Shown here: positions 5,300-60,497 of the stretch, piece by piece
Position numbering within the stretch: the first letter of the stretch is position 1
Layout: each line of letters begins with the position of its first letter
Assembly: GCA_963784785.1 (NCBI GenBank)
Contig: CAWASW010000007.1
Location: 66,394 to 130,393 of the forward strand
Direction: 5' to 3'
Length of the DNA stretch: 64,000 bases
Source: Candidatus Woesebacteria bacterium
Lineage (GTDB): Bacteria; Patescibacteriota; Microgenomatia; UBA8517
Notes under the pieces: generated by a model
What the model was told of the DNA's origin: nothing
What the model saw: only the letters and a program-made list of their open reading frames with translations
Database searches by the model: none
Program-made: the position numbers and the translations under genes

Positions 5300-5758
5300 T
5301 TAAGCTGTGGCGAAGTTTTGGTATTTATCCAACCTGTCCACTCTTTTTACTAAATTATTAAAATCCTCCCCAGTTGGAGCATCCTCGTCAAGCGCATTAA
5401 GCTGTTTGCCTATCAAATCAGCCCTATCATTAATATCTTTGAATCCCTGCTTAGTTTCTTTTCTTAAATCACTTAAATTCAAGTTTGTATCATCAATTTT
5501 AGCACTCAGCTTTGCCTCAAATTGGTTTATTCTTGTTCCAAGTTTAGTTTCTACTTGGTTTATTCTTGTTCCAAGTTTAGTTTCTACTTGGTTTATTCTT
5601 GTTCCAAGTTTAGTTTCAACCTCACTTATTTTCCTTCCGAGTTTAGTTTCTACTTGGTTTATTCTTGTTCCAAGTTTAGTTTCAACTTGACCAATTTTCA
5701 CAACAAGATCTTTTTTCAAATCCTCAATCGCTTGAATTACCAATTTCGAATCATTCAT
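5300..5758 (-). CDS. Coiled-coil protein with 11-aa tandem repeats (TKLGTRINQVE x5)
   Basis: Translation shows five near-identical 11-residue repeats encoded by a 33-bp DNA tandem repeat. Confidence 0.6.
   Translation of the reverse strand: MNDSKLVIQAIEDLKKDLVVKIGQVETKLGTRINQVETKLGRKISEVETKLGTRINQVETKLGTRINQVETKLGTRINQFEAKLSAKIDDTNLNLSDLRKETKQGFKDINDRADLIGKQLNALDEDAPTGEDFNNLVKRVDRLDKYQNFATA
5514..5690. repeat. 33-bp near-perfect tandem repeat x5, in-frame inside the CDS
   Basis: ttggtttattcttgttccaagtttagtttctac repeated head-to-tail with 1-2 variant copies. Confidence 0.85.
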
Positions 5759-8581: not shown

Positions 8582-9802
8582 CTACTCGTATCGTAATGCT
8601 TCGATTGGTTGTAGGTCACTAGCTTTTTTGGCTGGGTACCATCCAAAGACTATACCAATTATACCAGATACGCCAATTGCGAGGGCTATTGAACTTATTG
8701 AGATAGTAAATGGAAGACTCATAACTTTAGCCAAAATAAACGATATCAGTATCCCAAGTATCATACCCAAAAATCCTCCTAAAACTGTTAAAATTATGGC
8801 CTCAGTTAAAAACTGGGTTATGATAGTTTTCTTTTTGGCTCCCAAAGCTTTTCTAAGTCCTACTTCCCTAGTTCTTTCAGTAACTGTTACAAGCATGATA
8901 TTCATAATTCCAATGCCACCGACTAAAAGAGAAATTGCTGCAATTCCTGACAATAAAGATGTAAATATTCCTGTAATTGATGAAGCGGTATTTAAGATAT
9001 CCCCCTGATTCATAATTCTGAAATCTGCCTTTACTGGATCAGTTAATTTATGTCTATCTAGTAACAAATATCCAACTTGATCCTGCGCAGTAACCATTAC
9101 ATCAGCTGATTTTGCTTCAACTGAAATTGAATTTAAATAATTTTGTCCATATAAAACTTTCATTGCAGTTGTTAATGGAACGTAAACCATATCGTCTTGA
9201 TTCATAAAACCTGATCCACCTTTTTCCTTCGTAATACCAATAACCCTTAATGTCTGGCCCTCTATTCTTAGCGTTTGACCAACAACTGACGACCCTTCCC
9301 CAAACAAATCGATAACTACCTGTGGACCAATGACAACAACTTTGTTCATAGCATCAACATCATTTTGAGTAATGAAGGCACCAGTTGCCACTTCTATTTT
9401 TTTAACCTCTGCATATGCAGGAGTTACACCATAAACTTGTGTATTTGTGTTATTTTTTCCAGTTACTATCTGGCTTCTTCTAGAAATTTCTGGAGAAACT
9501 TTTGAAACAGTATTAACTGCAGCAGATGATACTATAGCTTTAGAATCTTCGTAAGTTAAAGTCGTAACAGCACCTCCGCCTCTGACATTACCTGACTGAA
9601 CGTTAGTAGGCGTTATTGTCAACAAATTACTACCAAGAGATTGGATTTGATCAGTAATTGATTTTTGTGATGCTTGCCCCAAAGAAACAAGAGCTATGAC
9701 AGAGCCGATACCGATAACAATTCCAAGAACTGCCAAAGCAGTTCTCATTTTATTTACTCTTAAAGTATTTAAAGCTTCTTCTACTATTTCTGCTACGTTC
9801 AT
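8582..9802 (-). CDS. MacB/FtsX-family ABC transporter permease
   Basis: N-terminal TM, large periplasmic domain and C-terminal 3-TM FtsX-type domain (LVGGIGIMNIMLVTVTERTREVGLRKALGA). Confidence 0.8.
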   Translation of the reverse strand: MNVAEIVEEALNTLRVNKMRTALAVLGIVIGIGSVIALVSLGQASQKSITDQIQSLGSNLLTITPTNVQSGNVRGGGAVTTLTYEDSKAIVSSAAVNTVSKVSPEISRRSQIVTGKNNTNTQVYGVTPAYAEVKKIEVATGAFITQNDVDAMNKVVVIGPQVVIDLFGEGSSVVGQTLRIEGQTLRVIGITKEKGGSGFMNQDDMVYVPLTTAMKVLYGQNYLNSISVEAKSADVMVTAQDQVGYLLLDRHKLTDPVKADFRIMNQGDILNTASSITGIFTSLLSGIAAISLLVGGIGIMNIMLVTVTERTREVGLRKALGAKKKTIITQFLTEAIILTVLGGFLGMILGILISFILAKVMSLPFTISISSIALAIGVSGIIGIVFGWYPAKKASDLQPIEALRYE

Positions 9803-9902
9803 ATATTAATTATCAATTTTCATTTATCAATTTACAATCAATTATCAATTCATCATTGTATCAATGAAAATTCAATGAAAATTGCAAATTGGAAATTGGA
9901 AA

Positions 9903-10565
9903 TTATTTTACTATCCTCCCATCACGAATTACTATCGTTCTATGCGCATACTCAGCAATATCTGGTTCATGTGTAATCATAATTATTGTTTTTCCTTCTT
10001 TGTTTAATTTTGTAAATATATCCATAATTTCGGCTGCCTGATTACTAGCAATGTTTCCTGTAGGTTCATCAGCTAATATTATTGCAGGATTTAAAACAAG
10101 ACTCCTTGCGATTGCCACTCTTTGTTGTTGGCCACCTGATAATTGCGCAGGAGTATTTTCAAATCTATCTGCGAGCCCGACCATAGTTAAATATTTTTTA
10201 GCAATTTCTAATCTTTTTTCTTTTGGAGTTCCTGCGTATGCCATAGGTAGCATTACATTTTTCATTGCTGAAGTTCTTGGAAGCAAATTAAAAGCTTGAA
10301 AAACAAATCCTATTTTTCTGTTTCTAATATCAGATAATTGATCGTCATCTAGATTTTCAACATTCTCCCCATCTAATACATATGAGCCCAACGACGGTTT
10401 ATCAAGAGCTCCCAAGATATGCATAAGTGTTGATTTTCCACTTCCAGAAGGGCCCATTATAGCTACAAATTCACCTCTCTTAATATCAAAAGATATATTA
10501 TCTAGTGCTTTAATTTCGATATCCCCAGTTCTGTAAATTTTTGAAACATTTTTTACTTGAATCAT
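9903..10565 (-). CDS. ABC transporter ATP-binding protein (MacB/LolD type)
   Basis: GPSGSGKST, LSGGQQQRVAIARSL, ILADEPTGN; its start overlaps the adaptor stop (ATGA). Confidence 0.9.
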   Translation of the reverse strand: MIQVKNVSKIYRTGDIEIKALDNISFDIKRGEFVAIMGPSGSGKSTLMHILGALDKPSLGSYVLDGENVENLDDDQLSDIRNRKIGFVFQAFNLLPRTSAMKNVMLPMAYAGTPKEKRLEIAKKYLTMVGLADRFENTPAQLSGGQQQRVAIARSLVLNPAIILADEPTGNIASNQAAEIMDIFTKLNKEGKTIIMITHEPDIAEYAHRTIVIRDGRIVK

Positions 10566-15217: not shown

Positions 15218-16457
15218 GGCCAAGCCCTAAAACTTCATCAAAGCTAATTGCTAAATCATATTTGTCTTCACTTGGAATATTAGACTTCAGCATCTCAAAT
15301 AATACAGCCATAGCTTTACCAGTATTTAAATCATCATTAATAGCATCTCCAAACTTTAATCTATATTCTTCAATCTTGTTATTCTTTTCTGTTGACAAAG
15401 TATTTCTCGAACTAGATTTTAGATTATAGATTATAGATTTTAGTTTTTTAAGTCCTTTGGAGGCAGACTCTAAAGACATCCATGTAAAATTCATTGGCTT
15501 TTTATAATGAGCACCCAAAAACAAGTATCTTAAAGCGATTGGGTCAAACCCTTTTTCTATAATATCTGATATTGTATAGAAGTTACCCAGAGATTTACTC
15601 ATTTTAGTTCCATCAACCATTAAAAATGCATAGTGTACCCAGAATTTACTAAAAGGTTTTTTTCCAGTTGCTCCTTCGCTTTGTGCTATTTCGTTTGGAT
15701 GGTGGATTGATAAATGATCTTCACCTCCGGTATGAATGTCAATTTGTTCACCTAGATATTTCATACTCATGGCAGAGCACTCGATATGCCAGCCTGGAAA
15801 TCCATCTCCCCAAGGACTTTCCCAATGCATGGCATGATCAGCAAACTTACCTACGCTCTTAAACCACAATGCAAAATCTTGAGGGTTCTTCTTGTTCTCG
15901 TCTGTCTTCACCTGTTCCCTAACACCTATTCGCTTTTCGTTAATTTGTTGTCCAAACAACTTTCCATAATCCTCAAATTTTGCTGTATCAAAGTAAACAG
16001 CTTCCTCTGTATCATAGGCAAAGCCATTTTTAAATAACTTTTCAATGAGTTCAATTTGATCTTTGATATGATCTGTTGCTTTACAAACAGTTGTTGGTCT
16101 AATGATATTTAATTTGTCCATTGAATCGTAGAAATTCTTTGTAAAAAATTCTGCCACTTCCCAAACAGTTTTATTTTGTTTTTTAGCTCCTTTTTCAAGT
16201 TTATCTTCCCCATCATCTGCGTCAGATACTAAATGACCCACATCTGTAACATTTTGAACGTGATTTACCTTAAAACCATTATGTTGAAGAGTTCTCTTTA
16301 AAATATCGTCCATCACATATTTTCTACCATGGCCGATATGTGCATAATCATAAACAGTCATTCCACAGGTGTAGAGTTTTACTTCATTGGGATCTATCGA
16401 AGAAAAAAGCTCTTTTTGTCTGGTGAGTGAGTTATATAAATACAAATCCATAATCAA
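15207..16457 (-). CDS. cysS: Cysteinyl-tRNA synthetase
   Basis: Class I HIGH motif (AHIGHGR) and KMSKS motif present verbatim; the nearby Cys pattern is typical of CysRS. Confidence 0.9.
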
Positions 16458-17920: not shown

Positions 17921-18529
17921 TCATAACATTCTTCGACCCTCTAATGCTTGTGTCAAAGTTGTATCGTCTACATATTCCAAATCAGCACCAGTTGGTATCC
18001 CCATCCCTAGGCGTGTAATTCGTAATTCATAATTCATACTTCGTAATTGTTTTGTAAGGTACATCGCCGTTGCTTCTCCCTCCATTGTTGGATTTGTAGC
18101 AATGACAACTTCTTGAATCTTAAATCTTGAATCTTGAATCCTGTCCAGTAGTGACTGGACAAATATCTCATCCGGTCCAATATTTTCCAGAGGATTAATT
18201 GCTCCATGCAAAACGTGATAAAGTCCTTTGTATCTTCCGCTTCTTTCAAAAGCGATAACATCAAGTGGATTTTCAACAACTAAACAAACCGTATGATCAC
18301 GAGCATCGTCTGAACAAATTGCACAAGGATCACTTTCTGCAATATTCTTACAGACTGAACAAAGTACAGTATCTTTTTTAAGCCTACTTAGATTGTTACT
18401 AAATTCATCTAACTGTGTTTGAGGTACACGAAGTAAATAATAAGTCAGGCGTTGCGCCGACTTCGGCCCAATTCCAGGTAATTTTTCAAATGACTCCGTT
18501 AAAGAAGTTATCGCCTTTGCAATTCGCAT
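17921..18529 (-). CDS. recR: Recombination protein RecR
   Basis: HhH (LPGIGPKSAQRL), C4 zinc finger (CSVC...CAIC) and Toprim domain. Confidence 0.9.
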   Translation of the reverse strand: MRIAKAITSLTESFEKLPGIGPKSAQRLTYYLLRVPQTQLDEFSNNLSRLKKDTVLCSVCKNIAESDPCAICSDDARDHTVCLVVENPLDVIAFERSGRYKGLYHVLHGAINPLENIGPDEIFVQSLLDRIQDSRFKIQEVVIATNPTMEGEATAMYLTKQLRSMNYELRITRLGMGIPTGADLEYVDDTTLTQALEGRRML

Positions 18530-19292: not shown

Positions 19293-19568
19293 TCCACCTA
19301 GAAGTCCAGATAATCCGCCGCCCATTTCCATCATTTTCTTTGCTGCTTCTTTTTGAACTTTTTTCATTGCTTCATTAATAAGATCAACTAAAAACTTCAT
19401 ATCTTCTCCATCCTTTTTAATGTATCTTATTTTTTGATCTCCTGTCACAGAAACTGACCATCCATTTTTTTCCATGGTTTCGATAATCTTTTCTAATTCC
19501 TTTTGAAGAGCTGAAGCCTGTTGCCTCATTTTATTTAACTCGCCTAATTGTTTAAATTTGTCAAACAT
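19281..19568 (-). CDS. ybaB: Nucleoid-associated protein YbaB/EbfC
   Basis: ~95 aa, with the typical MGG..GLLGGLG C-terminus and the dnaX-ybaB-recR context. Confidence 0.85.
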   Translation of the reverse strand: MFDKFKQLGELNKMRQQASALQKELEKIIETMEKNGWSVSVTGDQKIRYIKKDGEDMKFLVDLINEAMKKVQKEAAKKMMEMGGGLSGLLGGLGK

Positions 19569-19660
19569 ATCCTTAGATTAATAGATAAATAGATAATTAG
19601 AGAACTAGTAACGCATTCTGACTATTCATCTAGTCATCTATTTATCTAGTTCGCTAGCTA
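19569..19660 (-). repeat. ~65-90-bp conserved upstream element (family copy C), ending at the ybaB start codon
   Basis: Contains actagataaatagatgactagatgaatagt...ttctctaattatctatttatcta, shared with 45781-45851 and 59612-59687. Confidence 0.6.
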
Positions 19661-19965
19661 AACATTTGTTCAGCAACATTGATTATATTTTGATTATTCA
19701 CATCCGTCAACTCCTGCCTTGCAGGAGCCTCCTCAAGACAACATTCTATCCTAACTTCTTTGCCAAAAATACTAAGTGCAATGTCCTCCAACATTTTTTT
19801 TGTTTTTGTTTCTTCTAACTTATCTTTGTGAAATTGATAGTACACACCAAGTTTTATTCTATTGTCTTCAAAACCTAAAAGTTTTGCAGAATTTAGAAGT
19901 CCAGCAATAGACAAACTAATTGGTTTTACCTCTGCAAGAATTTTTTTCCAAGTGAAGTCATCCAT
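19654..19965 (-). CDS. DnaX C-terminal-domain-like protein (separate ORF, ATGA-overlapped with dnaX)
   Basis: Position immediately after the short dnaX and its helical character; could be a split dnaX. Confidence 0.45.
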   Translation of the reverse strand: MDDFTWKKILAEVKPISLSIAGLLNSAKLLGFEDNRIKLGVYYQFHKDKLEETKTKKMLEDIALSIFGKEVRIECCLEEAPARQELTDVNNQNIINVAEQMFS

Positions 19966-24081: not shown

Positions 24082-25188
24082 TCACTTAGTCATATTATCA
24101 AGAAAGCCGGAGATTGAGCCTGCTGAAATTAGACCTCTGACATCCTTAAAAGTTATTGCCAGTATTGCGAGAAGTAAAATTGCCATACCTACACCATGAA
24201 TTGTTGCCTCCAACTTTGATCCAATCTTTTTCCCAAAAATAGCCTCAATTATTATAAATAGCAATCTTCCCCCATCAAGTGCAGGAAAAGGAATAATATT
24301 TAGTATTGCAAGATTAACTGAAATTATGCCAAGTAAATTAATTAAAGGTAATATTCCAGTTTTGGCAACTTCTGAAGTAACTGCAAAAACTCCAACGGGA
24401 CCTGATACATCCTTTGGAGATTTACCGTGGAACAAATCAGTAAAAATTGAAATAAATCCGTTAACTACATTCTTGCCCCAGAAAATAGCCTCCTTGGTTC
24501 CATAATATGCCCCATAAAAAGGTCTTTGCCATATTGGTGCAAAGTAGGTCTCTGTATTTGTTATTGTTACTCCTAATGCACCTTGGCCAGCTGGTGGATT
24601 TGCTCGTGGTGTTATTGTAACCGTTCTTTCTTGTAATTCTAATTTTACTTTTTTACCTTTTTTGGTTTCGATACTTGAGACAAATTCTGAAACACTTTTA
24701 ACCTCTTTCCCATCAACTTTTTTAACGACATCACCAACTAATAGTTTGGCATCTTGTGCAGGTGAATTTGTTGCAATATCAGTTATTTTTACTTGCCCAG
24801 TATCTCTAGGAATTCCAGTAAACGAATAAACAATACCAAAAGCAACAATGGCTAACAAAAAGTTCATAATGACACCTGCTGTAATAACTGCAGTTTTTAC
24901 CCATAAAGATTTATTTAAAAATGCCTTATCCTTTTTGAACACTTGCCCTGAGCTGGCCGAAGGGTCCTCTGTCATTTCGCCGTGAAGTCTGACAAATCCT
25001 CCAAAAGGAAGTGCATTAATAGAATAAATTGTCTCCCCTATTTTCTTGCCAAATAAACGGGGGGGTAGTCCAAATCCAAACTCTTCAACCCAAATCCCAT
25101 TCCATTTAGCCACCATAAAATGTCCTAGTTCATGAACGATAACAAGAATTGAAAGTACTAGAAGAAAAATTAAAATAGACCAAAGCAT
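24082..25188 (-). CDS. rseP: Site-2 protease RseP (M50 zinc metalloprotease with PDZ domain)
   Basis: HELGH zinc motif in TM1, a PDZ segment and C-terminal LDGG. Confidence 0.85.
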   Translation of the reverse strand: MLWSILIFLLVLSILVIVHELGHFMVAKWNGIWVEEFGFGLPPRLFGKKIGETIYSINALPFGGFVRLHGEMTEDPSASSGQVFKKDKAFLNKSLWVKTAVITAGVIMNFLLAIVAFGIVYSFTGIPRDTGQVKITDIATNSPAQDAKLLVGDVVKKVDGKEVKSVSEFVSSIETKKGKKVKLELQERTVTITPRANPPAGQGALGVTITNTETYFAPIWQRPFYGAYYGTKEAIFWGKNVVNGFISIFTDLFHGKSPKDVSGPVGVFAVTSEVAKTGILPLINLLGIISVNLAILNIIPFPALDGGRLLFIIIEAIFGKKIGSKLEATIHGVGMAILLLAILAITFKDVRGLISAGSISGFLDNMTK

Positions 25189-25239
25189 AAATAGTAGTAT
25201 GCAGTATGTAGTATGTAGAATGCAAGAAGAAAAGTAAAA

Positions 25240-26963: not shown

Positions 26964-27024
26964 TGTTTATATAATATATGTCATCGCGAACGAATGCAAT
27001 GAGTGAGGCGATCTAACATCAAAC

Positions 27025-27061
27025 AGATTGCTTCTCCGCCCAAGGCGAATCGCAATGACAC
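27025..27061. repeat. 37-bp GC-richer intergenic repeat AGATTGCTTCTCCGCCCAAGGCGAATCGCAATGACAC (copy 1, tsf-frr spacer)
   Basis: Near-identical copy at 54783-54819; partial copies ttcgcaatgacact at 54834-54847 and 59101-59114; related atgagtgaggc-agattgct module at 26312-26330. Confidence 0.55.
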
Positions 27062-27062
27062 T

Positions 27063-27515
27063 TTAATTCTTTCCTAATTCAATTCTCACAACACGTCCAA
27101 GTCTTATATTTTCCCCAGTTTTTGCAATAAGCTCTTTGATTAAATCTTTGATCTTTTTGCTTGGATCCTTAATAAAATCTTGATTCTCCATATCTTCCTG
27201 GCCCATTGAAGCAGCCTGAAGTGCTATATCTTTTCCTAACTGTTCAAACAATTCATTTTTTGCAACAAAGTCAGTTTCTGAAAATAATTCCACTACTGCA
27301 ACGATCTTATTACTGTGGTGAGTGTATGAGAATACTTTTCCTTGTCCTGTTACTCTATCTTCTCTTTTTGCAACTTTCTCTAAGCCCTCTTTTTTAAGAA
27401 TTTCTAAAGCTTTTACCTCATCACCATTAACTTCTACTAAAACATTTTTAACACGCATAATACCTACACCTGTTGCCTCACGGATTTTTTTAATTAATGC
27501 AGTATCAATCTTCAT
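27063..27515 (-). CDS. tsf: Elongation factor Ts (short form)
   Basis: N-terminal UBA-like LIKKIREATGVGIMRVKNVL and its position after rpsB. Confidence 0.8.
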   Translation of the reverse strand: MKIDTALIKKIREATGVGIMRVKNVLVEVNGDEVKALEILKKEGLEKVAKREDRVTGQGKVFSYTHHSNKIVAVVELFSETDFVAKNELFEQLGKDIALQAASMGQEDMENQDFIKDPSKKIKDLIKELIAKTGENIRLGRVVRIELGKN

Positions 27516-27541
27516 AGCGTATAGCGTATAGCGTATAGGTC

Positions 27542-29473: not shown

Positions 29474-30290
29474 CTTCTATACTAGTTATAGTACTAGTTG
29501 CAGCTAAAATCAAGTTTTCGGATAGACAGGTAATTGTAACTGGTCCTACTCCCCCAGGTACTGGTGTAAAAAAGCTTGCTTTGTTTGAAACTTCTTGCAT
29601 AACGTCCCCTTGAGGAGAACCAACATCAATTACAATTGCATCCTCTTTGACCATTTCTGGAGTGATCAAATTCATTGCCCCTGTAGCTGAAATTACGGCA
29701 TCAGCCTGCAGGGTGGAACCCTTCAAGTCCTGTGTATCTTTGTCTACTTCCAAAACAATATATCCTAATTTTTTTAGCTCGTTAGCGAGCGGTTTTCCAA
29801 CCATTCCATTTGCTCCGATAACACACACAGTAATCACATCAATTCGTGTTTCGAATATCGCTAAAGCCAAAACCTCCATAACAGCTTTTGAAGTTGGATG
29901 AAGAAAAAGACTATCGCTTTGCAATCCATCGACATCCTTTTGTCTCGCGATAGAATTTACAATTTCCAATTTCCAATTTTCAATATTCTTTGGCAATGGA
30001 AACTGAACCATAATTCCATGAATTGTTTCATCATCATTTAGTGTTTGAATCAAAAACTTTATATCATCGAATTTGACGTCCTCTGGTAACTCATAGATAT
30101 CAACTTGACAGCCAAGACTTTCGATAAATTTCTTTTTTAAATTTGTATATAAAATACTTGCTGGGTCAGTTCCTATAAGTAAAGTAGCTAAATGAGGAAC
30201 AATACCTAAACCACGGACTTTATCAACGCTACTTTGAAGTAACATCTTTTTCTTCGCTACATATTCCTTGCCATTAAAAGTTATTGCCAT
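29433..30290 (-). CDS. folD: Methylenetetrahydrofolate dehydrogenase/cyclohydrolase
   Basis: FolD family pattern and NAD(P)-binding GxxGxVG (IGANGMVGKP). Confidence 0.85.
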   Translation of the reverse strand: MAITFNGKEYVAKKKMLLQSSVDKVRGLGIVPHLATLLIGTDPASILYTNLKKKFIESLGCQVDIYELPEDVKFDDIKFLIQTLNDDETIHGIMVQFPLPKNIENWKLEIVNSIARQKDVDGLQSDSLFLHPTSKAVMEVLALAIFETRIDVITVCVIGANGMVGKPLANELKKLGYIVLEVDKDTQDLKGSTLQADAVISATGAMNLITPEMVKEDAIVIDVGSPQGDVMQEVSNKASFFTPVPGGVGPVTITCLSENLILAATSTITSIEDDKQSLPESNSGN

Positions 30291-32147: not shown

Positions 32148-32726
32148 ATGGGTCAAAGAACACTTTTGTGCATATCCTGTAATAGTAAAATGTTTCTGTG
32201 GGGAAAGACTGGAACTGGAAAGAAAAGATGGTTTTGTAAAGTTTGTAAAACTTCAAGAATTTACCACAATAAAAAGAAAGATTTTAAAGTAGTTGATCTT
32301 TTCAGACAGTATATTTTGTGGGGTTTGACATATGAAATGCTGTCTTCTGTCTCAGGTTTGTCTGTAAGATATTTGGAGGGTGAATTTCATAAGTTATTGC
32401 TTCTTGATCCTCCAAAACTTCCTAGATTTGATCAAACTTTGTCTGGAAGAATTGATACTGCATATCTTTTGATTGATGGGCTTTGGTTTGGAAGATGGTT
32501 TGTCTTGATGCTGTATAGACAAAGTGGAACTTTGTACCTTTTGCATGTATCTATTGCTGGTAGAGAGGCTTCAACAAAAATAGTTAAGGATTTGAGGTTC
32601 ATAAAGGAGGAATTAAAATACACATTTTCAGGCTCTGTAACAGATGGAGGAACTGCCATTTGTTCTGCGGTTGATGAAGTGTATCCCCCACTCTCCACAT
32701 CAGATATGTCTTGCTCATATGCATAG
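32148..32726 (+). CDS. Transposase, N-terminal part (C2C2 zinc-finger region)
   Basis: CISCNS...CKVCK zinc-ribbon; continues into the overlapping ORF in another frame. Confidence 0.55.
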   Translation: MGQRTLLCISCNSKMFLWGKTGTGKKRWFCKVCKTSRIYHNKKKDFKVVDLFRQYILWGLTYEMLSSVSGLSVRYLEGEFHKLLLLDPPKLPRFDQTLSGRIDTAYLLIDGLWFGRWFVLMLYRQSGTLYLLHVSIAGREASTKIVKDLRFIKEELKYTFSGSVTDGGTAICSAVDEVYPPLSTSDMSCSYA

Positions 32727-33171
32727 AGATATTGTAAATGCACTTGGTAGACACTCAAAAGATAGAAGAATTGAAGAATTAATAAAAATTGCAAACCACA
32801 TTTGGTTCATAGAAAGTCATGAAGCTTTGAAATACTGGGAAACAATCTTAAAAGATTGGGTTAAGGCTAATTTCTTCTTTCTGAAAGAGATGAGGACAGA
32901 TGATTCTGGCCACAGTTGGTATATTCATAAAGGTGTGAGAAAAGCTGTCAGGATCCTAATTAAACTTCCAAAAACCTCATTCAAGTTTTTAGACCACCCA
33001 ACTATGCCAAAAACAACAAATGAAATTGAAGCTACATTTGGGCATATAGGACAAAGATGGTTAAGACATAAAGGCCTTAAAAAGACTCGTTGGGAAAGTT
33101 ACCTTAAATGGTTTGTATATTATTACAACTTTGAAAAAATGAAGGCCGATAATAAAACAAAACAGGATTAG
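32644..33171 (+). CDS. Transposase, C-terminal part (frame +1 relative to 32148-32726)
   Basis: Overlaps the previous ORF by 83 nt; TTNEIEATFGHIGQRW resembles the T-N-x-x-E motif near the C-terminus of several DDE transposase families. Confidence 0.55.
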   Translation: MEELPFVLRLMKCIPHSPHQICLAHMHRDIVNALGRHSKDRRIEELIKIANHIWFIESHEALKYWETILKDWVKANFFFLKEMRTDDSGHSWYIHKGVRKAVRILIKLPKTSFKFLDHPTMPKTTNEIEATFGHIGQRWLRHKGLKKTRWESYLKWFVYYYNFEKMKADNKTKQD

Positions 33172-37219: not shown

Positions 37220-39199
37220 CTATTCTTTTTCACCCTCGGCTACAGGTTTTTTCCATGAAGCATATTTACATTCTGGATAACGAGAGCATCCAAAGAAGTT
37301 TCCTCTTTTTGCTTTTTTGACTATCACGTCCCCTTCTTTACAATCTGGGCATTTCACTCCTACTTTATCCAAAAACTTTTCTGTATGCTTACATTCTGGG
37401 AAAAGAGAGCATGAGATAAACTTGCCAAATCTTCCTGTTCTTACTACTAGTTCTCCATCTGCACAGTCTGGGCAATGTTTGCCTAATTTCTCTGTTTCTA
37501 TTTTTACCCTAACTGAATCCTTTTCTACTGCTGCTAATTTCTTAGAAAATGGCGTCCAAAATTTTTTCATTTCTTTCTGCCATTTAATTTTTCCCTCTGC
37601 AATTCTATCTAAATCTAGTTCCATCCCTGCAGTAAAACCATAGTCCATTTCGTCAGGAAAATTAGTTACCAAAAATTCTGTGACAGCAAAACCAATTGTA
37701 GTTGGGAAAAAGTTTTTCTCTTTCTTTTCTACATAAGCTCTAAGTTGAATAGTTGAAATAATTGGAGCATACGTTGAAGGCCTACCAATTCCTAATTTTT
37801 CTAATGTCTTAATCAAAGATGCTTCATTAAATCTTGCTGGTGGTTGTGTAAACTTTTGAGTTGGATCAATTTTTACTAAATCTAAATTTTCATCTTTCTT
37901 AACTTCAGGAAGCATTACAATTTCTTTGTCGATATATGAATAACCTCCGATCACAAACAATTTTCTCCAACCATCAAAGACGAGCGTCTGACCCGACGCT
38001 CTTAGGTTGTAGGTTATAGCTGATAGGTTACAGATAGCTACAACGTCGATAGATGTTTCATTGTAAAGTGCTTGGCTCATCTGACATGCAAGAAATCGCC
38101 TACGAATAAGATCGTACAATTTTTCTTCTCCATATTCGCTATTACCTATGCCCTGTCCGCTATTACCTACGTCCGTAGGACGAATAGCTTCGTGAGCTTC
38201 TTGTGCTGATTTACTTTTTGTATGATAAATTATTGCTTTTTCTGGCAAGTATTCTTTTCCATATTCTTTTTCAATAAATTTTCTAGCAACCGCCACAGCG
38301 TCAGCAGATAAATTCAAAGAATCAGTTCTGTGGTATGTAATTAAACCCTCTTCATACAATTTCTGAGCTGCAGACATAGTTTTCTTGGCACTCCAGCCAA
38401 ACATTCTTGCAGCTGCTTGAGTTAAGGTCGAAGTAGTAAACGGTGGATACGCATTTTTTCTAACTTCTCTTTTCTTAACGTCCGCTACTTTATACTTTGC
38501 AATTTCTAGATCTTTTAAAATCTTGTCAGCGGTAGCTTTGTCTTTAACCTCTTGCTTAACTAATTGCACTTTAAAGCAATCCTGTAATACTTTTGATACT
38601 TGTAATACTTGTTTTACCTGTGCATAAATTTCCCAATATTCTTCTGGCTTAAATGCTTTTATTTCATTTTCTCTATCTACTATTAAACGAACAGCAACAG
38701 ATTGAACACGACCTGCAGATAATCCTCTTCTGACCTTTTTCCACAATAGCGGCGAAAGTTTATAACCAACAAGTCTATCAAGTACACGTCTTGCAATCTG
38801 AGCATCAACAAGATTTTGATTAACAATCCCTGGATTACTAATTGCTTCTTCCACTGCCTTTTGTGTAATTTCATGGAAAGATATTCTTTTAACTATTTTT
38901 GATCTTTTTCCAATTATGAATTCGACATGCGCAGCTATTGCTTCTCCTTCTCTATCTGGATCAGAGGCAATATAAATTTCATCAGCTAGTTTTGCTTTTT
39001 TCCTAAGATCTGCAATTGTTGATTTCTTTTTGTCTATTGGCTGATAGTCAGGTAAAAAATCATTTTCAATATCAATTGAGAGTTTGCTTTTAGGAAGATC
39101 CATGATGTGACCTTTGGTTGAATCGACAAGATAGTCAGAGCCGAGAAATTTCGACAATGTTCTTGCCTTGGTTGGACTTTCGACGATGATAAACTTCAT
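37220..39199 (-). CDS. topA: DNA topoisomerase I
   Basis: Toprim N-terminus (MKFIIVESPTKARTL), catalytic region, two C-terminal C4 zinc ribbons (CPDCADGELV..., CPDCKEGDVIV...). Confidence 0.9.
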   Translation of the reverse strand: MKFIIVESPTKARTLSKFLGSDYLVDSTKGHIMDLPKSKLSIDIENDFLPDYQPIDKKKSTIADLRKKAKLADEIYIASDPDREGEAIAAHVEFIIGKRSKIVKRISFHEITQKAVEEAISNPGIVNQNLVDAQIARRVLDRLVGYKLSPLLWKKVRRGLSAGRVQSVAVRLIVDRENEIKAFKPEEYWEIYAQVKQVLQVSKVLQDCFKVQLVKQEVKDKATADKILKDLEIAKYKVADVKKREVRKNAYPPFTTSTLTQAAARMFGWSAKKTMSAAQKLYEEGLITYHRTDSLNLSADAVAVARKFIEKEYGKEYLPEKAIIYHTKSKSAQEAHEAIRPTDVGNSGQGIGNSEYGEEKLYDLIRRRFLACQMSQALYNETSIDVVAICNLSAITYNLRASGQTLVFDGWRKLFVIGGYSYIDKEIVMLPEVKKDENLDLVKIDPTQKFTQPPARFNEASLIKTLEKLGIGRPSTYAPIISTIQLRAYVEKKEKNFFPTTIGFAVTEFLVTNFPDEMDYGFTAGMELDLDRIAEGKIKWQKEMKKFWTPFSKKLAAVEKDSVRVKIETEKLGKHCPDCADGELVVRTGRFGKFISCSLFPECKHTEKFLDKVGVKCPDCKEGDVIVKKAKRGNFFGCSRYPECKYASWKKPVAEGEKE

Positions 39200-39285
39200 G
39201 GGTTAATTTTTAATTTCTAATTTTTAATTTCTAATCAATTTCTAATTACTAATTAATAAAATAAATATTCAGTAAAAACTAAGAA

Positions 39286-39864
39286 TTAAGAACTAAAAAT
39301 TTTGTTAATGTAGTTTATTATTGTTTTTGGCTCATGTACAGCAGTAGCTCCATTTTCAATTAAATAATCCGTTGCTTCTGATCCCGCAATAGCGAAGACT
39401 TCAGTATCTTCATTTGCTGCATGGTTGGCGGTGGAGATTGTACCAGACCTTCTTTTTCCTTCAATAACCAAAACTGCTTGCGATAGTTTTACAATTAGCT
39501 GATTTCTGGCCAAAAAGTTTTTTGGTAATGGCTCTGTTCCCTCTGGAAAACCCGATACAACAGCACCATTTTTTGAAATTTGTTCCGCTAAATTTTTATT
39601 TTCTGGTGGATAAATAATATCAAGGCCTGAACCAATTACTGCTATAGTTCTACCTCCATATTTTAAAGCCGTCTCATGAGCCACAGTATCTATCCCTCGA
39701 GCGAGTCCTGATACTATTGTAATATTATTTTTAACAAGTTCTTTTACAAATTCCTCAGTTAATTTTCTACCTCTTGCTGACATTTCTCTTGACCCCACCA
39801 CAGCCACCGCCCTTTTGTCTTGTTCTTTTAATTCTCCTAAAATGTATAAGCAAAAATCATTCAT
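39286..39864 (-). CDS. dprA: DNA processing protein DprA (Rossmann domain only)
   Basis: VVGSREMSARG...IVSGLARGIDTVAHE...GSGLDIIYP motifs. Confidence 0.8.
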   Translation of the reverse strand: MNDFCLYILGELKEQDKRAVAVVGSREMSARGRKLTEEFVKELVKNNITIVSGLARGIDTVAHETALKYGGRTIAVIGSGLDIIYPPENKNLAEQISKNGAVVSGFPEGTEPLPKNFLARNQLIVKLSQAVLVIEGKRRSGTISTANHAANEDTEVFAIAGSEATDYLIENGATAVHEPKTIINYINKIFSS

Positions 39865-43277: not shown

Positions 43278-45192
43278 GATTGTAACACTTTACGCCTTTA
43301 CAGCCTTGATTGTATCAGCTTGGGCAATACAGTCAATTCGAATTAAAAAGTTTATATTTAAAAAAACAATTTTAGATATTCCCCTAGTTATCTATTTATC
43401 TATTTATTTAACCAGCTCTCTATTGTCAATCGATCCAAGAACATCATGGCTTGGTTACTATTCAAGGTTTAATGGAGGTTTAGTTTCGCAAATTTGCTAT
43501 GCGTTACTTTATTGGGCCTTCGTCTCACACATGTCAGCGAAGCAGTCCCTATACGCTATACGCTATTCCCTAATCTCTACAGCAATCGCCGCAGCTATGG
43601 CTGTCGTAGAGCATTACGGGATATTTACTACCTGCGGGATAATGGGATTTGGTTACAGAGAATCTTGCTGGGTCCAAGATGTACAAAATAGAGTTTTTTC
43701 AACACTTGGTCAACCTAATTGGCTGGCAGCAACGATCACTGCGTTAATACCAATGACTTGGTATTTCGCAATTTTTGATTTTAAATTTTTAATTTTTAAT
43801 AAATTGAATTCAAATTTTAAATTTCAAATTTCAAATTTAATCTGGCTTGTTATTTCAATGCTATTTTTTGTCACGTTGCTGTTTACCAAATCTCGATCAG
43901 GGCTACTTGCTTTTGGGATTGAAGCAATTGTCTTCTGGGGATTTTTATTTTTAAGAGAGAAAAATAAGTATTTAAAAGAATTTATATTTATCTTTTTATC
44001 ATTTAATTTTTTAGCATTTATATTTTGGTTTTTACCAAGCATCCAATTAACTAACAACCAAGCTTCTGTTTCAAGTGGCCCCGCCCTTGAGACCGGGGGT
44101 ACTGAATCTGGAACTATTCGTAAAGATGTTTGGCTTGGTGCGATTGAAGTTTTTAAACACTATCCTATTCTTGGAACTGGACCAGAGACTTTTGCTTTTA
44201 GTTTCCCTATGTATAAACCAGTCGAACACAACTTAACTTCTGAATGGGATTTCATTTACAACAAAGCACACAATGAATATCTAAACCTGCTTGCAAATGT
44301 CGGGGTCCTTGGCTTTCTTTCATATTCATTATTAATATTAGTATCAATAAAACAAATCGCAGGTAATTTACAATTTACAATTTACAATTTACATTCAATT
44401 TCTAATTTGAAAATTAACAAAAATGAAAATTCATTGATAATTGATAATTGGAAATTGAGAATTGGATTGCTTTCCGGTTATATTGCAATCCTCGTTACTA
44501 ATTTTTTTGGATTTTCTGTAGTTCCTGTATCACTTTTATTTTTTCTATTTCCTGCGTTAACAGTACAAAGTACACAGTACGAGGTACTTAGTAATGGCAG
44601 ATCAAAGCTCGACGTAAGTCAGGTGATTGGTGTTATCTTTGTACTATGTACTATGTCCTATGTACTATTTTGCATAGCAAAATATTGGCAGGCTGATGTT
44701 TACTACAACAAATCAAATTTTGACAAAGCTATTTCAATTTCTCCAAACGAACCAAACTACATTTCAAAATTAGCCCTATCCGATAACTCAGTCGAAACAG
44801 CGTTAAAAGCGGTTGAAATGAACCCTTATAACCAAAACTCTCGAAAAATTTTAATCAGTAATTTAGTCAAGAGTTCGACTAAGGACTCAAACGGTATGAA
44901 ACTTGCTGAAGCAGTCATCAAAAATGGTATTTTATTATCACCAAACGATCCAAGACTTTACTATCAATTAGGCATTTTACAATTAAGAATTGGTGAACAA
45001 AAAAGTGGAATCGATAGTCTAATTAAGTCAACTTTACTCAAACCAAACTATAAAGAAGCAAGATTTGCACTTGGCGCCACTTATTTAGATGTTAAAGAGT
45101 TTTCTAAAGCAAAAATTGAACTTGAATACATACTGAAGAATATCGACCCAAATGACGAGTTGACTAAAAACTATTTGAAAGAACTATTGTAG
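43180..45192 (+). CDS. O-antigen-ligase (Wzy_C)-like polytopic membrane protein with C-terminal TPR repeats
   Basis: Multiple TMs; KAHNEYLNLLANVGVLGF matches the Wzy_C core; C-terminal TPR-like helices; its 5' end overlaps the annotated mreB start on the other strand. Confidence 0.6.
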   Translation: MKTDMIPVIFNILFFIIPLVFLKNTSELFEFNKIVTLYAFTALIVSAWAIQSIRIKKFIFKKTILDIPLVIYLSIYLTSSLLSIDPRTSWLGYYSRFNGGLVSQICYALLYWAFVSHMSAKQSLYAIRYSLISTAIAAAMAVVEHYGIFTTCGIMGFGYRESCWVQDVQNRVFSTLGQPNWLAATITALIPMTWYFAIFDFKFLIFNKLNSNFKFQISNLIWLVISMLFFVTLLFTKSRSGLLAFGIEAIVFWGFLFLREKNKYLKEFIFIFLSFNFLAFIFWFLPSIQLTNNQASVSSGPALETGGTESGTIRKDVWLGAIEVFKHYPILGTGPETFAFSFPMYKPVEHNLTSEWDFIYNKAHNEYLNLLANVGVLGFLSYSLLILVSIKQIAGNLQFTIYNLHSISNLKINKNENSLIIDNWKLRIGLLSGYIAILVTNFFGFSVVPVSLLFFLFPALTVQSTQYEVLSNGRSKLDVSQVIGVIFVLCTMSYVLFCIAKYWQADVYYNKSNFDKAISISPNEPNYISKLALSDNSVETALKAVEMNPYNQNSRKILISNLVKSSTKDSNGMKLAEAVIKNGILLSPNDPRLYYQLGILQLRIGEQKSGIDSLIKSTLLKPNYKEARFALGATYLDVKEFSKAKIELEYILKNIDPNDELTKNYLKELL

Positions 45193-45216: not shown

Positions 45217-45774
45217 ATGGTACAGAAAATTATACAGTCTGGAGAGAAAAAACTAAGGGAAGTAAGTAAGCCAATCGAAAAAATAGATAAAAAGATTGCA
45301 AAACTTGTTCAGGACTTACGAGATACACTGGCTGTTCAAAAAGATCCTGAAGGAGTTGGTCTTGCTGCTCCTCAAATAGGTATAAATTTAAGAGCTTTTG
45401 CTGTCGATTTTAAAGAATTAAAAAGAATAATAATTAATCCAGAGATAATAAGCAAAGCTTGGCCCTCTGGGCTAGAAAAAAAGAAAAAGCCCCACTCCGC
45501 CAAGGCTTCGAGGGGCAAGAGTGAAATTCTTGAAGGGTGTTTGTCACTTCCCCACTATTACGGACCATTGAAAAGAGAAGACTATGTAAAATTAAAATAT
45601 CTAGATGAAAACGGGAAAGAGATCATAGAAGAATTCAAAGATTTTAATGCTCAAATAATCTTGCATGAAGTTGATCATTTAAATGGGTTTTTATTTATAG
45701 ACAGGCTATTGGAACAAAAGAAGAAACTATACAAGTTAGATAGTAGTGATGAATGGGAGGAGGTGGAGATATAG
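45217..45774 (+). CDS. def: Peptide deformylase
   Basis: GVGLAAPQIG, EGCLS, HEVDHLNG motifs. Confidence 0.9.
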   Translation: MVQKIIQSGEKKLREVSKPIEKIDKKIAKLVQDLRDTLAVQKDPEGVGLAAPQIGINLRAFAVDFKELKRIIINPEIISKAWPSGLEKKKKPHSAKASRGKSEILEGCLSLPHYYGPLKREDYVKLKYLDENGKEIIEEFKDFNAQIILHEVDHLNGFLFIDRLLEQKKKLYKLDSSDEWEEVEI

Positions 45775-45780
45775 AGAATT

Positions 45781-45851
45781 AGACAAATAGTAAACTAGAT
45801 GAATAGTTTTGTTCTATCTAGTTATCTAATAATCTAGTTATCTAGTATTCT
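45781..45851 (+). repeat. Conserved upstream element (family copy A), ending at the fmt start codon
   Basis: aaactagatgaatagtttt identical to copy B; followed by tatctaataatcta. Confidence 0.6.
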
Positions 45852-46760
45852 ATGAAGCTGATCTTTTTTGGAACACCAGATTATGTAATTCCAGTTCTGG
45901 AAAAGTTACACAAGTACCATGAAATTGTAGCTGTTGTTACTCAATCTCCAAAGCCTATGGGGAGGGAAAAAACTCTTAGTTACTCTGCAGTTGATGCATG
46001 GGCATTTAAAAAACATATTCCAAGAAACTTTGATTACGTTGATCTACCTGAGGCTGACATGGGAGTCTGTGCGTCTTTTGGGATGATTATTCCTCAAGTT
46101 ATTTTAGACAAGTTTAAATATGGAATATTAGTAATTCATCCGTCACTACTACCACAATTTAGGTGGAGCAACCCAATTAGAGCAACACTTATCACCGGCA
46201 CAAATCCAACTGGGGTGACAATAATTAAAATGAATGACAAATGGGACGAAGGACCAATTCTAACCCAATTTAAAGAGGAAGTATTACCTGATGATACCAA
46301 CGAGACGCTACGAGAAAGACTATTTAAAAAATCTGCTGATGTTCTTTTGGAGATGATACCTGCCTATGTCGACGGAAAAATTAAATTAAAAAAACAAGAT
46401 AGCAAAAAAGCTACATATGCAAAAATGATTTCCAAAAACGATGCTTTCATTCCTTCTGTTTATCTCAAGAACGCGATGGAAATTAACGATTCTAAAGAGT
46501 CTTGGAATATTCCGTTTATAATAAATTATTCAGTTATACCTAATGCAAATTTATTAGATAGATTTATAAAAGCCATGAGCTTCTGGCCTGTGGCTTGGTC
46601 TAAATTAGAAATAAGAGGTCAAGAAAAAAGAATAAAAATAATTAGTGCACATATAAACTCTGAGTCTGGATACTTGGAACTTGATGAAGTTCAACTTGAA
46701 GGCAAAAAGCCAACTACATGGAAACAATTCAAAGGTGCATATGGAATTGAAAGATTCTAA
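45852..46760 (+). CDS. fmt: Methionyl-tRNA formyltransferase
   Basis: N-terminal formyltransferase domain (IFFGTP..., IHPSLLP); follows def. Confidence 0.85.
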   Translation: MKLIFFGTPDYVIPVLEKLHKYHEIVAVVTQSPKPMGREKTLSYSAVDAWAFKKHIPRNFDYVDLPEADMGVCASFGMIIPQVILDKFKYGILVIHPSLLPQFRWSNPIRATLITGTNPTGVTIIKMNDKWDEGPILTQFKEEVLPDDTNETLRERLFKKSADVLLEMIPAYVDGKIKLKKQDSKKATYAKMISKNDAFIPSVYLKNAMEINDSKESWNIPFIINYSVIPNANLLDRFIKAMSFWPVAWSKLEIRGQEKRIKIISAHINSESGYLELDEVQLEGKKPTTWKQFKGAYGIERF

Positions 46761-59185: not shown

Positions 59186-59611
59186 ATGGCAAAGAAAATT
59201 AAAGTAATAGTTAAAATTAACCTCAAGGGAGCAGAAGCTACCCCAGCACCTCCAGTCGGAACTGCACTTGGACAACATGGTATTGCAATCATGGAGTTTG
59301 TCAAAGCATATAACGACAAGACCAAAGACATGAAGGGACAAGTTATTCCAGCAGTTATCACCATTTTTGAAGATAGAAGTTTTGATTTTATAATCAAAAA
59401 GGCTCCAATGTCAGTAATGATCAAAAAGGTTTTAGGTTTAGAAAAAGGATCTGGAACTGCAGGAAGAGCAACACATGCAACAATGACAAGAGCACAAGCA
59501 GAAGAAGTAGCAAAAGAAAAGATGGACGATTTAAACACCAAAGACTTAGACGCAGCAGTTAAAATAGTCGCAGGAACAGCAAGATCAATGGGAATCAAGG
59601 TAGAAGATTAA
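59186..59611 (+). CDS. rplK: 50S ribosomal protein L11
   Basis: PAPPVGTALGQHGIAIMEF motif. Confidence 0.9.
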   Translation: MAKKIKVIVKINLKGAEATPAPPVGTALGQHGIAIMEFVKAYNDKTKDMKGQVIPAVITIFEDRSFDFIIKKAPMSVMIKKVLGLEKGSGTAGRATHATMTRAQAEEVAKEKMDDLNTKDLDAAVKIVAGTARSMGIKVED

Positions 59612-59687
59612 TAGCAAACTAGATAACTAGATGAATAGTTTTTTTCTAATTATCTAATAATCTATTTATCTAATTAACTAAACCAAT
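59612..59687 (+). repeat. Conserved upstream element (family copy B), ending at the rplA start codon
   Basis: aaactagataactagatgaatagtttttttctaattatctaataatctatttatctaatt. Confidence 0.6.
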
Positions 59688-60497
59688 ATGGGGAAAACTA
59701 AAACAGCTAAATTAACAGATACAGCTAAAGTTACTAAAACTTCTGCTGAAGAATATGCTGAAAAGAAAGCAAAGAAGGCTGCATTACAAAATAAAGTAGA
59801 AAAAGTATCAGAGGTAATAACAAATGAGGTACCAAAAGTATCAGAAGTATCAAAAGTAGAAACAGAACAAGAACCAGAAGTTCCAAAAAGAAAAGAGAAG
59901 ATTTTAACTATTTCATCTCGTGGTAAAAAATACTTAGAATCAAAATCAAAGGTTTCCAAAGCAAATCTTTACAAAATTGAGGATGCAATCAAGGCTGTTA
60001 AAGAATCAAGCTACTCAAAATTTGATGGTACAATGGAACTACATTTAAATGTCAAAAAGACGGGTATAAATGTTCAAACCACTCTTCCATTTTCAACCGG
60101 AAAACAAAAAAGAATTGAAATTGCTGATGAAAAAACATTAGCAAAGCTTAAAGAAGGAAAAATTGACTTTGATTTACTTCTTACAACTGCAGAAATGATG
60201 CCAAAACTAGCTATGTTTGCAAGACTATTAGGTCCTAAAGGATTAATGCCAAATCCTAAAAATGGAACAGTTATAAAGTCAGTTAAAGACGTCGAAAAGT
60301 TTAAAGGTAACATGATTACACTTAAGACTGAGAGAGAAGCTGCTTTAATTCATACATCATTTGGAAAAGTATCACAGAAACAAGAAGAGCTTGTAACCAA
60401 TGCTGAAGCCATTTTAACAGCCCTTGGAGGATCAAAGTCTATAGTTAGAGCTTTCATGAAGTCAACAATGAGTCCTTCAGTTAAAATAACTATCTAA
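59688..60497 (+). CDS. rplA: 50S ribosomal protein L1 (with ~60-aa Lys/Glu-rich N-terminal extension)
   Basis: L1 core (…LLGPKGLMPNPK.GTV…). Confidence 0.9.
   Translation: MGKTKTAKLTDTAKVTKTSAEEYAEKKAKKAALQNKVEKVSEVITNEVPKVSEVSKVETEQEPEVPKRKEKILTISSRGKKYLESKSKVSKANLYKIEDAIKAVKESSYSKFDGTMELHLNVKKTGINVQTTLPFSTGKQKRIEIADEKTLAKLKEGKIDFDLLLTTAEMMPKLAMFARLLGPKGLMPNPKNGTVIKSVKDVEKFKGNMITLKTEREAALIHTSFGKVSQKQEELVTNAEAILTALGGSKSIVRAFMKSTMSPSVKITI

Follow-up and report, generated by a model that had tools for sequence, protein, structure and literature searches.

Three look-alike stretches between stop and start codons of a Woesebacteria genome look like insertions rather than a shared promoter or regulator site

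Three similar spacers and their surroundings

The window, by which we mean the whole 64-kb stretch of Woesebacteria DNA that was analyzed, contains three similar stretches of approximately 76–85 nt, located directly upstream of ybaB, fmt and rplA (family A, Table 1). Judged by homologues of its RplK, the window belongs to Candidatus Woesebacteria (Microgenomates, CPR). The identities of ybaB, def, rplA and of the two Trans_reg_C (OmpR-type) proteins encoded in the window were confirmed by Pfam, while fmt was identified by a precomputed Formyl_trans_N match on its product. An earlier sequence-only reading had described these stretches as elements that abut start codons and share one orientation relative to the downstream gene. 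Both the three locations and the common orientation hold. The copies do reach the ATG, but each of them also adjoins the stop codon of the upstream gene, and therefore fills the whole intercistronic spacer.

Table 1. Repeats at stop–start junctions and related repeats in the window
Feature	Position	Strand	Setting	Flanking codons
Family-A copy 1	19566..19656 including stop and ATG; element 19569-19653, 85 nt	minus	between a 103-aa ORF following dnaX and ybaB	stop TAG 19656-19654; ybaB ATG 19568-19566
Family-A copy 2	45772..45854 including stop and ATG; element 45775-45851, 77 nt	plus	between def and fmt	def stop TAG 45772-45774; fmt ATG from 45852
Family-A copy 3	59609..59690 including stop and ATG; element 59612-59687, 76 nt	plus	between rplK and rplA	rplK stop TAA 59609-59611; rplA ATG from 59688
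Family-B hairpin, period-7 arms AATTTCC.../...AATTGAT	9803..9908	minus	fills the spacer between the genes for an ABC ATPase (9903-10565) and a MacB/FtsX permease (8582-9802)	ends at ATG
Family-B hairpin	39197..39300	minus	between dprA (39286-39864) and topA (37220-39199)	ends at ATG
Family-B hairpin	44364..44475	plus	in-frame inside a Wzy_C/TPR membrane-protein gene (43180-45192)	
Tandem-only filler, (ATACGCT) x3.6	27514..27538	minus	upstream end of ORF 27063-27515	runs into ATG
Tandem-only heptamer filler	25196-25224			abuts a start codon

Pairwise global alignment of the three family-A copies gives identities of about 70% (60–61 of 86–88 columns) and scores of 28–31, compared to −0.4 to 1.7 (sd about 4, maximum 17) for 500 dinucleotide shuffles (z = 6.7–7.3). 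With single copies as nhmmer queries, the other two copies appear among the best non-self matches in the 64-kb window (E = 1.6e-5 to 0.023). These z values near 7 and the single-copy matches show that the resemblance is not mere low-complexity AT-richness. The concern, raised with the original observation, that the similarity might dissolve when scored against shuffled sequence can be set aside, as not one of the 500 shuffles reaches the real scores. All three copies contain the 14-mer ACTAGATGAATAGT. The core AACTAGATGAATAGTTTT is identical in two of them as had been claimed, although it is 18 nt long and not 19. Profile and covariance-model searches found exactly three family-A copies in the window. 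A candidate fourth copy at 43377-43411 proved to be ordinary coding sequence (IPLVIYLSIYL) that is conserved in orthologues. A 6.6-kb piece that includes copy 2 is present with identical sequence in a second sample (L001; ERR12037365).

The same window harbors a second palindromic family (B), with two copies at gene junctions and one inside a reading frame (Table 1). In the copy between dprA and topA, the 5' arm takes in the dprA stop codon; the corresponding spacer in the relative L048 is 48 nt long and does not contain such a repeat. The in-frame copy accounts for a 29-aa insertion that is missing from the L048 and L049 orthologues. Tandem arrays are also frequent: the window contains 19 arrays of period 7 and 12 of period 8, compared to 3.2 and 3.9 in shuffles and approximately one array per 10 kb in relatives. 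Many of these arrays reside inside conserved ORFs without a change in ORF length, and identical units recur at unlinked sites.

The 62 co-directional ORF pairs in the window are separated by a median spacer of 23.5 nt. A Shine–Dalgarno (SD) core, scored as a 4-mer at −20..−4, precedes only 7 of 80 ORF starts, a rough figure because the first possible start of each ORF was taken. The sequence-only reading had the element replacing an SD sequence in two of the three cases. Such a sequence is indeed absent before fmt and rplA, but this absence is not special in a window with so few SD cores. The idea that the hairpin draws an SD-like run from the last part of the upstream gene near to the ATG fits def (GGAGGAGGTG) and the family-B copy at 9803, not the other copies, and was rejected as a general rule. 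Gene direction and the sign of the GC skew change together in the window. A cognate transposase was sought in the window, where only a frameshifted IS66-like remnant was found and a tblastn search with a Y1 transposase gave no match; a Y1_Tnp gene is present in the relative L008.

Palindromic anatomy and predicted folding

Each family-A copy is an imperfect palindrome that consists of a 5' arm, a short loop of 7–15 nt and a 3' arm. The 5' arm comprises three to four octamer units ending in TAG (for example, CAAACTAG ATAACTAG ATGAATAG), and the 3' arm comprises three to four complementary units starting with CTA (for example, CTAATTAT CTAATAAT CTATTTAT). The units can be written as NNAACTAG/NNAAATAG and their complement. 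On the minus strand, copy 1 contains the 5' arm CGAACTAG ATAAATAG ATGACTAG ATGAATAG, a loop and the 3' arm CTAATTAT CTATTTAT CTATTAAT CTA, followed by AGGAT and the ATG. In copy 2, the 5' arm AGAATTAG ACAAATAG TAAACTAG ATGAATAG and the loop TTTTGTT precede the 3' arm CTATCTAG TTATCTAA TAATCTAG TTATCTAG TATTCT, which runs up to the ATG. Copy 3 starts with the 5' arm TAG CAAACTAG ATAACTAG ATGAATAG, continues with the loop TTTTTTT and ends with the 3' arm CTAATTAT CTAATAAT CTATTTAT CTAATTAA CTAAACCAAT at the ATG. The element had previously been described as built from direct repeats. Direct repeats of TAGATRA are present, but the architecture is that of an inverted repeat with three to four octamers per arm. 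Consistent with this symmetry, the reverse strand of every copy also matches the family profile (26–39 bits, versus 50–72 bits for the forward strand).

RNA folding predicts an imperfect hairpin of roughly 17–29 base pairs for each copy, with energies of −17 to −24 kcal/mol (z about −2.3; 2–5 of 200 shuffles fold as well). The predicted stems are rooted −4 to +5 nt from the stop codon of the upstream gene and 2–16 nt from the ATG that follows; in copy 2, the stem begins on the def stop codon itself. The apical stem, in which CTAGATGAATAG pairs with CTAATTATCTA, is the best-conserved part of the family. The outer units vary in sequence and number, and the ends are the least conserved part. Compensatory double changes were found by RNAalifold at 0 of 16 consensus pairs, in an alignment of only five sequences in which most pairs are invariant. 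We also looked for a strand asymmetry of folding caused by G-U pairs and found that sense and antisense RNA fold with about equal stability.

Several ideas as to how the hairpin might act on the downstream start were tried and dropped. In a masked-start coupling model, which places a ribosome footprint on the upstream stop codon of the five known family-A copies (see below), the mean unpaired probability of the start codon shifts from 0.37–0.66 to 0.37–0.71 with mixed sign, and the start is not consistently unmasked. A relay mini-ORF would be conceivable, with an ATG in the core that opens a reading frame of 4–12 codons in five of five copies; its stop is placed inconsistently relative to the next start. 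In family A, a TAG recurs every 8 nt, and the stops TAG, TAA and TGA together occupy three frames on both strands. As a unifying rule for junction arrays, all-frame stops were rejected, because other arrays such as (ATACGCT)n have none. Two further scans of the window, one for ungapped palindromes and one of sliding-window MFE, proved too insensitive or too noisy to be of use.

Orthologous junctions and further copies

At the orthologous junctions of relatives, the genes flanking family A overlap, lie close together or are separated by a different sequence. The spacer between rplK and rplA measures 2 nt in L005, 1 nt in L051, 2 nt in L050 and 9 nt in both L052 and L053, and it is replaced by a TAATG overlap in L008. 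L006 and L007 carry an unrelated 94-nt periodic palindrome of ATTGGTAATT units at this junction. Between def and fmt, we found a TAATG overlap in L048, a spacer of 7 nt in L049, and 33 nt of the form (NNNCTAG)x5 in L008. Approximately 127 kb of DNA from Woesebacteria relatives contains no copy of family A or family B, compared to three dispersed family-A copies in the 64-kb window. Since these spacers are overlapping or short and lack the element, family A is an addition to normally tight junctions and not a conserved leader. From sequence comparison, the three look-alike stretches thus look like insertions, not like a shared promoter or regulator site, because close relatives lack them. Comparing filled with empty sites in relatives gave no consistent target-site duplication; the boundaries are blurred by the TA/TAG-rich units.

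The comparison also bears on the suggestion that the copy before rplA overlaps the expected L1 autoregulatory leader. A spacer of only −1 to 9 nt in six relatives leaves no room for a conserved L1 leader, and the element has no match in Rfam at the gathering threshold or at E ≤ 1.

To extend the family beyond the window, the pattern TAGATGAATAG N{8,30} TTATCTANNNATCTA was run on 185,579 representative genomes and on JGI metagenomes. The 185,579 representative genomes gave only a chance match, in a Bacilli MAG, while the JGI metagenomes returned two matches. The first (L003) is situated on a CPR-like contig with 31% GC, between the genes for the N- and C-terminal transketolase subunits (tktN/tktC); relatives that share this TktC cluster lack the element and carry a DUF3800 gene in its place. 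The second (L004, 41% GC) lies between mraZ and rsmH on a contig that, judged by its RsmH, belongs to Anaerolineales, a different phylum. A profile made from the three window copies alone scores these matches at 39 bits (L003) and 22 bits (L004), whereas 38 decoys reach no more than 11.9 bits. These decoys are looser-pattern matches in IMG/VR viral contigs, none of which scores as an element. A motif search for further copies had been proposed as a check on the initial observation; it has now yielded two, both at unrelated junctions. Related octamer units (CAAACTAG, CGAACTAG) occur in two phyla.

Three relatives (L056-L058) are close to L004, with 97% identity in RsmH and 90–96% identity at the nucleotide level. 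Their mraZ–rsmH junction does not contain a hairpin; it holds a tandem array, (NNAACTAG)x5, and reads TAG TCAACTAG CTGACTAG CAAACTAG TTAACTAG T ATG. By its sequence, this array resembles a lone family-A 5' arm. At the rsmH stop/ATG junction, L004 carries a second, unrelated palindrome of approximately 110 nt (GTCATTGCGAG...CTCGCAATGAC), where L056 has an ATGA overlap. A search of 234 kb with the covariance model R1 found no additional copies; the only weak match was the L056 tandem array (25.5 bits, E = 0.08).

With these additions, five of five known copies are located between co-directional partner genes and in one orientation, namely at the junctions dnaX-like ORF/ybaB, def/fmt, rplK/rplA, tktN/tktC and mraZ/rsmH.

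Origin, possible roles and known repeats

On balance, family A is probably a REP/MITE-like foldback repeat, small and non-coding, that survives only at stop–start junctions, and we infer that its role, if any, is played at the RNA level. The sequence-only reading had offered three options: a shared promoter or 5'-UTR module, a regulator binding array, or a small mobile repeat that landed in 5' leaders. Only the mobile repeat fits the evidence, given the presence or absence of copies at orthologous junctions and the occurrence of copies at unrelated junctions in two other organisms. Because a copy brings stops in all frames of both strands, it can survive only outside ORFs, and in a gene-dense genome this leaves positions exactly between a stop and the next start of an operon. 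Such a survival filter would explain why the copies look as if they abut start codons, and no regulatory link is needed. Parallel cases are the family-B copies, two of them at junctions and one in frame within an ORF, and the second palindrome of L004 at the rsmH junction.

As to how such a repeat may spread, copies would be added at the DNA level, either by insertion or by copying from other copies. A possible maker is a hairpin-recognizing, strand-specific HUH/Y1 transposase acting in trans. Once in place, a copy would be co-transcribed with its flanking genes and would fold to an imperfect hairpin, with the extra ~75 nt looped out. The base of this hairpin would bring the stop codon and the next AUG close together, such that a terminating ribosome may stay near the next start in an organism that mostly does without SD sequences; the hairpin could in this way keep the translation of the two genes coupled. 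Looping-out is also a plausible reason why gene pairs that overlap in relatives tolerate the insert. The uniform orientation would fit either a strand-specific HUH/Y1 enzyme or selection on the RNA. Since gene direction and GC skew are linked in the window, these two causes are inseparable.

Some observations run against the foldback-repeat reading. There is no definable target-site duplication and no cognate transposase in the window, and conservation peaks at the apex of the hairpin and not at the ends, contrary to classical MITEs, which have terminal inverted repeats. The tandem-only forms in L008 and L056 could mean local growth and not transposition, and the uniform orientation in five of five copies could equally reflect RNA selection. 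With identities of only about 70%, no copy represents a recent transposition. The idea of coupling by the hairpin, in turn, is met by the inconsistent exposure of the start codon and by the equal stability of sense and antisense folds.

A different account, which we consider unlikely, is that family A is a selected cis-acting RNA hairpin, a functional mRNA element kept because it tunes the expression ratio of partner genes. It could serve as an RNase III-type processing site, as a 3' stabilizer comparable to REP in malE-malF, or as a stop–start bridge for reinitiation or shunting, and a trans factor would recognize the conserved apical CUAGAUGAAUAG. This account draws on the same orientation relative to transcription in five of five copies, on the conservation of the apical stem instead of the ends, on the placement of the stop and start codons by the foot of the stem, on flanking genes that are always functional partners, and on the related octamer units in two phyla. 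Transcribed MITEs are also known RNase III substrates (PMC10969869). However, even close relatives do not keep the hairpin at orthologous junctions, where overlaps and spacers of 1–9 nt are found. Furthermore, compensatory change is seen at 0 of 16 consensus pairs, the sense strand has no clear advantage in folding energy, no Rfam family matches, and placing a ribosome on the stop codon of the upstream gene leaves the modeled accessibility of the start almost unchanged.

Local growth of arrays without transposition is a quite unlikely origin. Slippage and template switching at stop–start junctions would build arrays of 7–8-nt units, sometimes as inverted duplicates, and the copies would resemble one another through a shared mutational bias or through gene conversion between arrays. 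The enrichment of the window in period-7 and period-8 arrays over shuffles is consistent with this process, as are the tandem-only fillers, of which there are two in the window (Table 1), one between def and fmt in L008 and one between mraZ and rsmH in L056. Unit number differs between copies, and at the mraZ–rsmH junction the array is either tandem or a hairpin in near relatives. Slippage alone, however, does not explain an identical apical core of 14–18 nt at three unlinked loci, the 39-bit match in another organism, or identical heptamer units at unlinked sites. Because of these three gaps, some copying between loci would still be needed.

Bolder, and in our view highly doubtful, is the proposal that dedicated, fast-turnover arrays of TAG units (NNAACTAG every 7–8 nt, a stop in every frame, tandem or foldback) occupy stop–start junctions of two or more phyla (Woesebacteria and Anaerolineales) as a translation device for largely SD-less genomes. 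If this were true, the hairpin would hold the terminating ribosome by the next AUG, allow reinitiation or shunting across ~75 nt and block out-of-frame read-through. Units shared across phyla would then point to a common trans-acting factor or to exchange between CPR episymbiont and host lineages.

Very improbable, finally, is a DNA-level regulatory module (binding sites of a regulator of the OmpR or another type, or a promoter common to the copies) that controls ybaB, fmt and rplA, even though the copies contain direct repeats of TAGATRA, the window encodes two Trans_reg_C proteins and copy 2 includes one promoter-like match. That match is weak (9 of 12 positions); no promoter-like site is present in copies 1 and 3, such sites are about as numerous as in shuffles, and the copies do not share a sigma-70-like promoter. 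In OmpR/PhoB boxes, direct repeats stand about one helical turn (10–11 bp) apart and are bound by tandem winged-helix domains. Units that recur every 8 bp in inverted arrays do not fit this arrangement, and the proposed OmpR/PhoB array is not supported. The suggested link to the regulators of the window fares no better: relatives without the element keep the Trans_reg_C gene next to rplA in synteny, and the flanking operon partners overlap or nearly touch in relatives.

Other known types of element were considered as well. No intrinsic terminator-like site was found in the three regions, where the stems are AT-rich and not followed by a T-run. A TIGR array was rejected because every copy consists of one hairpin with a period of 8 nt and the neighbors are all housekeeping genes; as far as described in PMC12045711, TIGR arrays are tandem interspaced guide-RNA units beside a tas gene in phages and parasitic bacteria. 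By eye, the copies also lack the motifs of attC sites and of K-turn or box C-D RNAs.

If the foldback-repeat reading is right, three housekeeping operons lose a tempting but wrong label as a regulon, a promoter or an OmpR array. A tiny, gene-dense CPR genome would hold several families of palindromic short-period repeats that are placed precisely at stop–start junctions, with one of them in-frame in proteins. Essential gene pairs that overlap in relatives (TAATG) would be split here by a hairpin of ~75 nt and yet must be expressed. This amounts to a natural experiment, and the locus would lend itself to work on reinitiation and translational coupling in organisms in which SD sequences are seldom used. 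The occurrence across phyla, together with tandem and hairpin forms at one junction in near-identical strains, provides a handle on the origin of such repeats.

A description of comparable elements in CPR genomes was not found in the searchable literature, and the closest parallels come from other groups. Cyanobacterial STRR, which have no known function, consist of tandem 7-nt units that recur in many intergenic positions within a genome. Unlike family A, they are tandem only, GC-richer, from a different phylum and not tied to stop–start junctions. Eukaryotic foldback (FB) elements have inverted arms of short tandem repeats whose number varies between copies; they are kilobase-sized, and some encode a transposase. 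The plan of their arms is like that of family A, a likeness of design for which homology is without evidence.

Among bacterial elements, Rickettsia palindromic elements (RPE) insert in-frame in proteins (PMC10969869). RPE are palindromic repeats of a reduced genome that are found in essential genes as well as at junctions, and the in-frame family-B copy of the window behaves likewise. Family A is unlike RPE in that its stops in all frames allow no read-through, its length is half that of RPE and its arms are periodic. The Correia/NEMIS and ERIC (IRU) MITEs are inverted repeats of approximately 100–150 bp that are co-transcribed within operons and present or absent between strains, as family A appears to be, and RNase III or RNase E cleaves the hairpins that they form in RNA (PMC10969869). 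In these larger MITEs, the terminal inverted repeats are defined and the target is duplicated (TA for Correia), whereas in family A, with 61–85 nt, no duplication was seen and the apex is the most conserved part. Measured against the general definition of a MITE, family A has inverted symmetry over its whole length, and a parent IS or transposase is missing from the window.

The REP/BIME sequences of enterobacteria and pseudomonads, which are mobilized by the Y1/HUH transposase RAYT, are short imperfect palindromes (20–40 nt or compound) with many dispersed copies. Family A differs from REP in its AT-rich, tandem-octamer arms, whose units end in TAG but form no GTAG head next to a GC-rich stem. 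There is also no RAYT gene in the window, with Y1_Tnp occurring only in the relative L008, and family A sits flush between stop and start whereas REP lie just after the 3' ends of genes. What the two have in common is the location in spaces between co-directional genes that are, or in family A would be, transcribed, the hairpin expected in the mRNA, and the conservation of the whole palindrome and not just its ends.

Surroundings of the family-A core and translation initiation

In all five copies of family A, the foldback repeat that fills stop-start junctions, an ATG within the conserved core TAGATGAATAG opens a mini-ORF of 4 to 12 codons (MNS... or MNR...), the stop position of which varies among the copies. 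About 25 nt upstream of copy 1, which precedes ybaB, and within the 103-aa ORF on that side, we found an 11/12 match to a sigma-70-like promoter (TTGACG-17-TATAAT, 19682-19710, minus strand). If this predicted promoter is active, copy 1 would lie within the ybaB 5' leader.

Judged from the sequence, translation initiation in this organism appears to proceed mostly without a Shine-Dalgarno sequence. A GGAG, GAGG or AGGA core at -20 to -4 precedes 7 of the 80 predicted starts (about 9%; all ORF starts of the window), a count that is approximate because the first possible start codon was taken for each ORF. Between rplA and rplJ, the compared Woesebacteria keep a gene that encodes only a Trans_reg_C winged helix and no receiver domain, regardless of the presence (window) or absence (L051, L052 and L053) of family A.

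Short tandem arrays and family-B hairpins

The window contains 19 tandem arrays of period 7 and 12 of period 8, a strong excess over shuffles (3.2 and 3.9) and over the approximately one such array per 10 kb in relatives. The majority lie within conserved ORFs, namely ychF, cysS, recR, folD and the Wzy_C gene, which alone holds seven, and the length of these ORFs is changed little or not at all relative to their orthologues. Some heptamers are found unchanged at sites that are not linked to each other: AAAGTAC starts at both 820 and 44562, and ACGCTAT is shared by 27514, 43549 and 20724. Period 7 is also that of the arms of family B, the second hairpin family of the window. Separately, a 33-nt unit is repeated five times in tandem (85% matches) at 5522-5689, inside the ORF at 5300-5758.

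Coordinates of repeats and associated genes (window positions unless a contig is named)
Feature	Position	Strand	Remark
GTCATYGCGA...TCGCAATGAC repeat	26964-27062; 54779-54860; about 59095-59115
GTCATYGCGA...TCGCAATGAC repeat	L004 2614-2721		Anaerolineales contig
Trans_reg_C-only gene	61245-62060; L051 5847-6866; L052 9831-10631; L053 4498-5298
Core TAGATGAATAG with mini-ORF ATG	19621-19633 (-); 45795-45807; 59627-59639		also in L003 and L004 copies
IS66-family-like DDE transposase remnant	32148-33171		frameshifted; weak Pfam match, E = 7.5e-5
Y1_Tnp gene (IS200/RAYT-like HUH transposase)	L008 14489-15166		Woesebacteria relative
Period-7/8 arrays (examples)	820-852; 15413-15448; 18015-18048; 18111-18140; 29954-29984; 43288-44668
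Tandem-only array (ATACGCT)x3.6	27514-27538	-	up to or near start codon of ORF 27063-27515
Tandem-only array (CATACTN)x4	25196-25224	-	up to or near start codon of M50 protease gene 24082-25188
Family B	9803-9908	-	operon junction filled up to ATG
Family B	39197-39300	-	operon junction filled up to ATG
Family B	44364-44475	+	in-frame 29-aa insertion in Wzy_C/TPR protein, missing from orthologues
Family B (fourth copy)	43769-43841	+	14-aa variable segment, same Wzy_C/TPR gene

Other repeats and transposase genes

A palindromic repeat with the ends GTCATYGCGA...TCGCAATGAC and the inner motif AGATTGCTTC occurs several times in the window. Comparison with the near relative L056 identifies its copy in L004 as an insertion at the rsmH stop/ATG junction. 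Furthermore, the window has a 196-nt direct repeat (48038-48233 and 52319-52514, 99% identical), each copy of which directly follows a tRNA-Thr gene; the two tRNA genes differ (TGT and GGT). A LAGLIDADG_3 ORF (48294-49085) comes after the first copy. A search of the window for a Y1_Tnp homologue found none; a gene of this kind is present in the relative L008, and this type of enzyme is a candidate for mobilising hairpin repeats.
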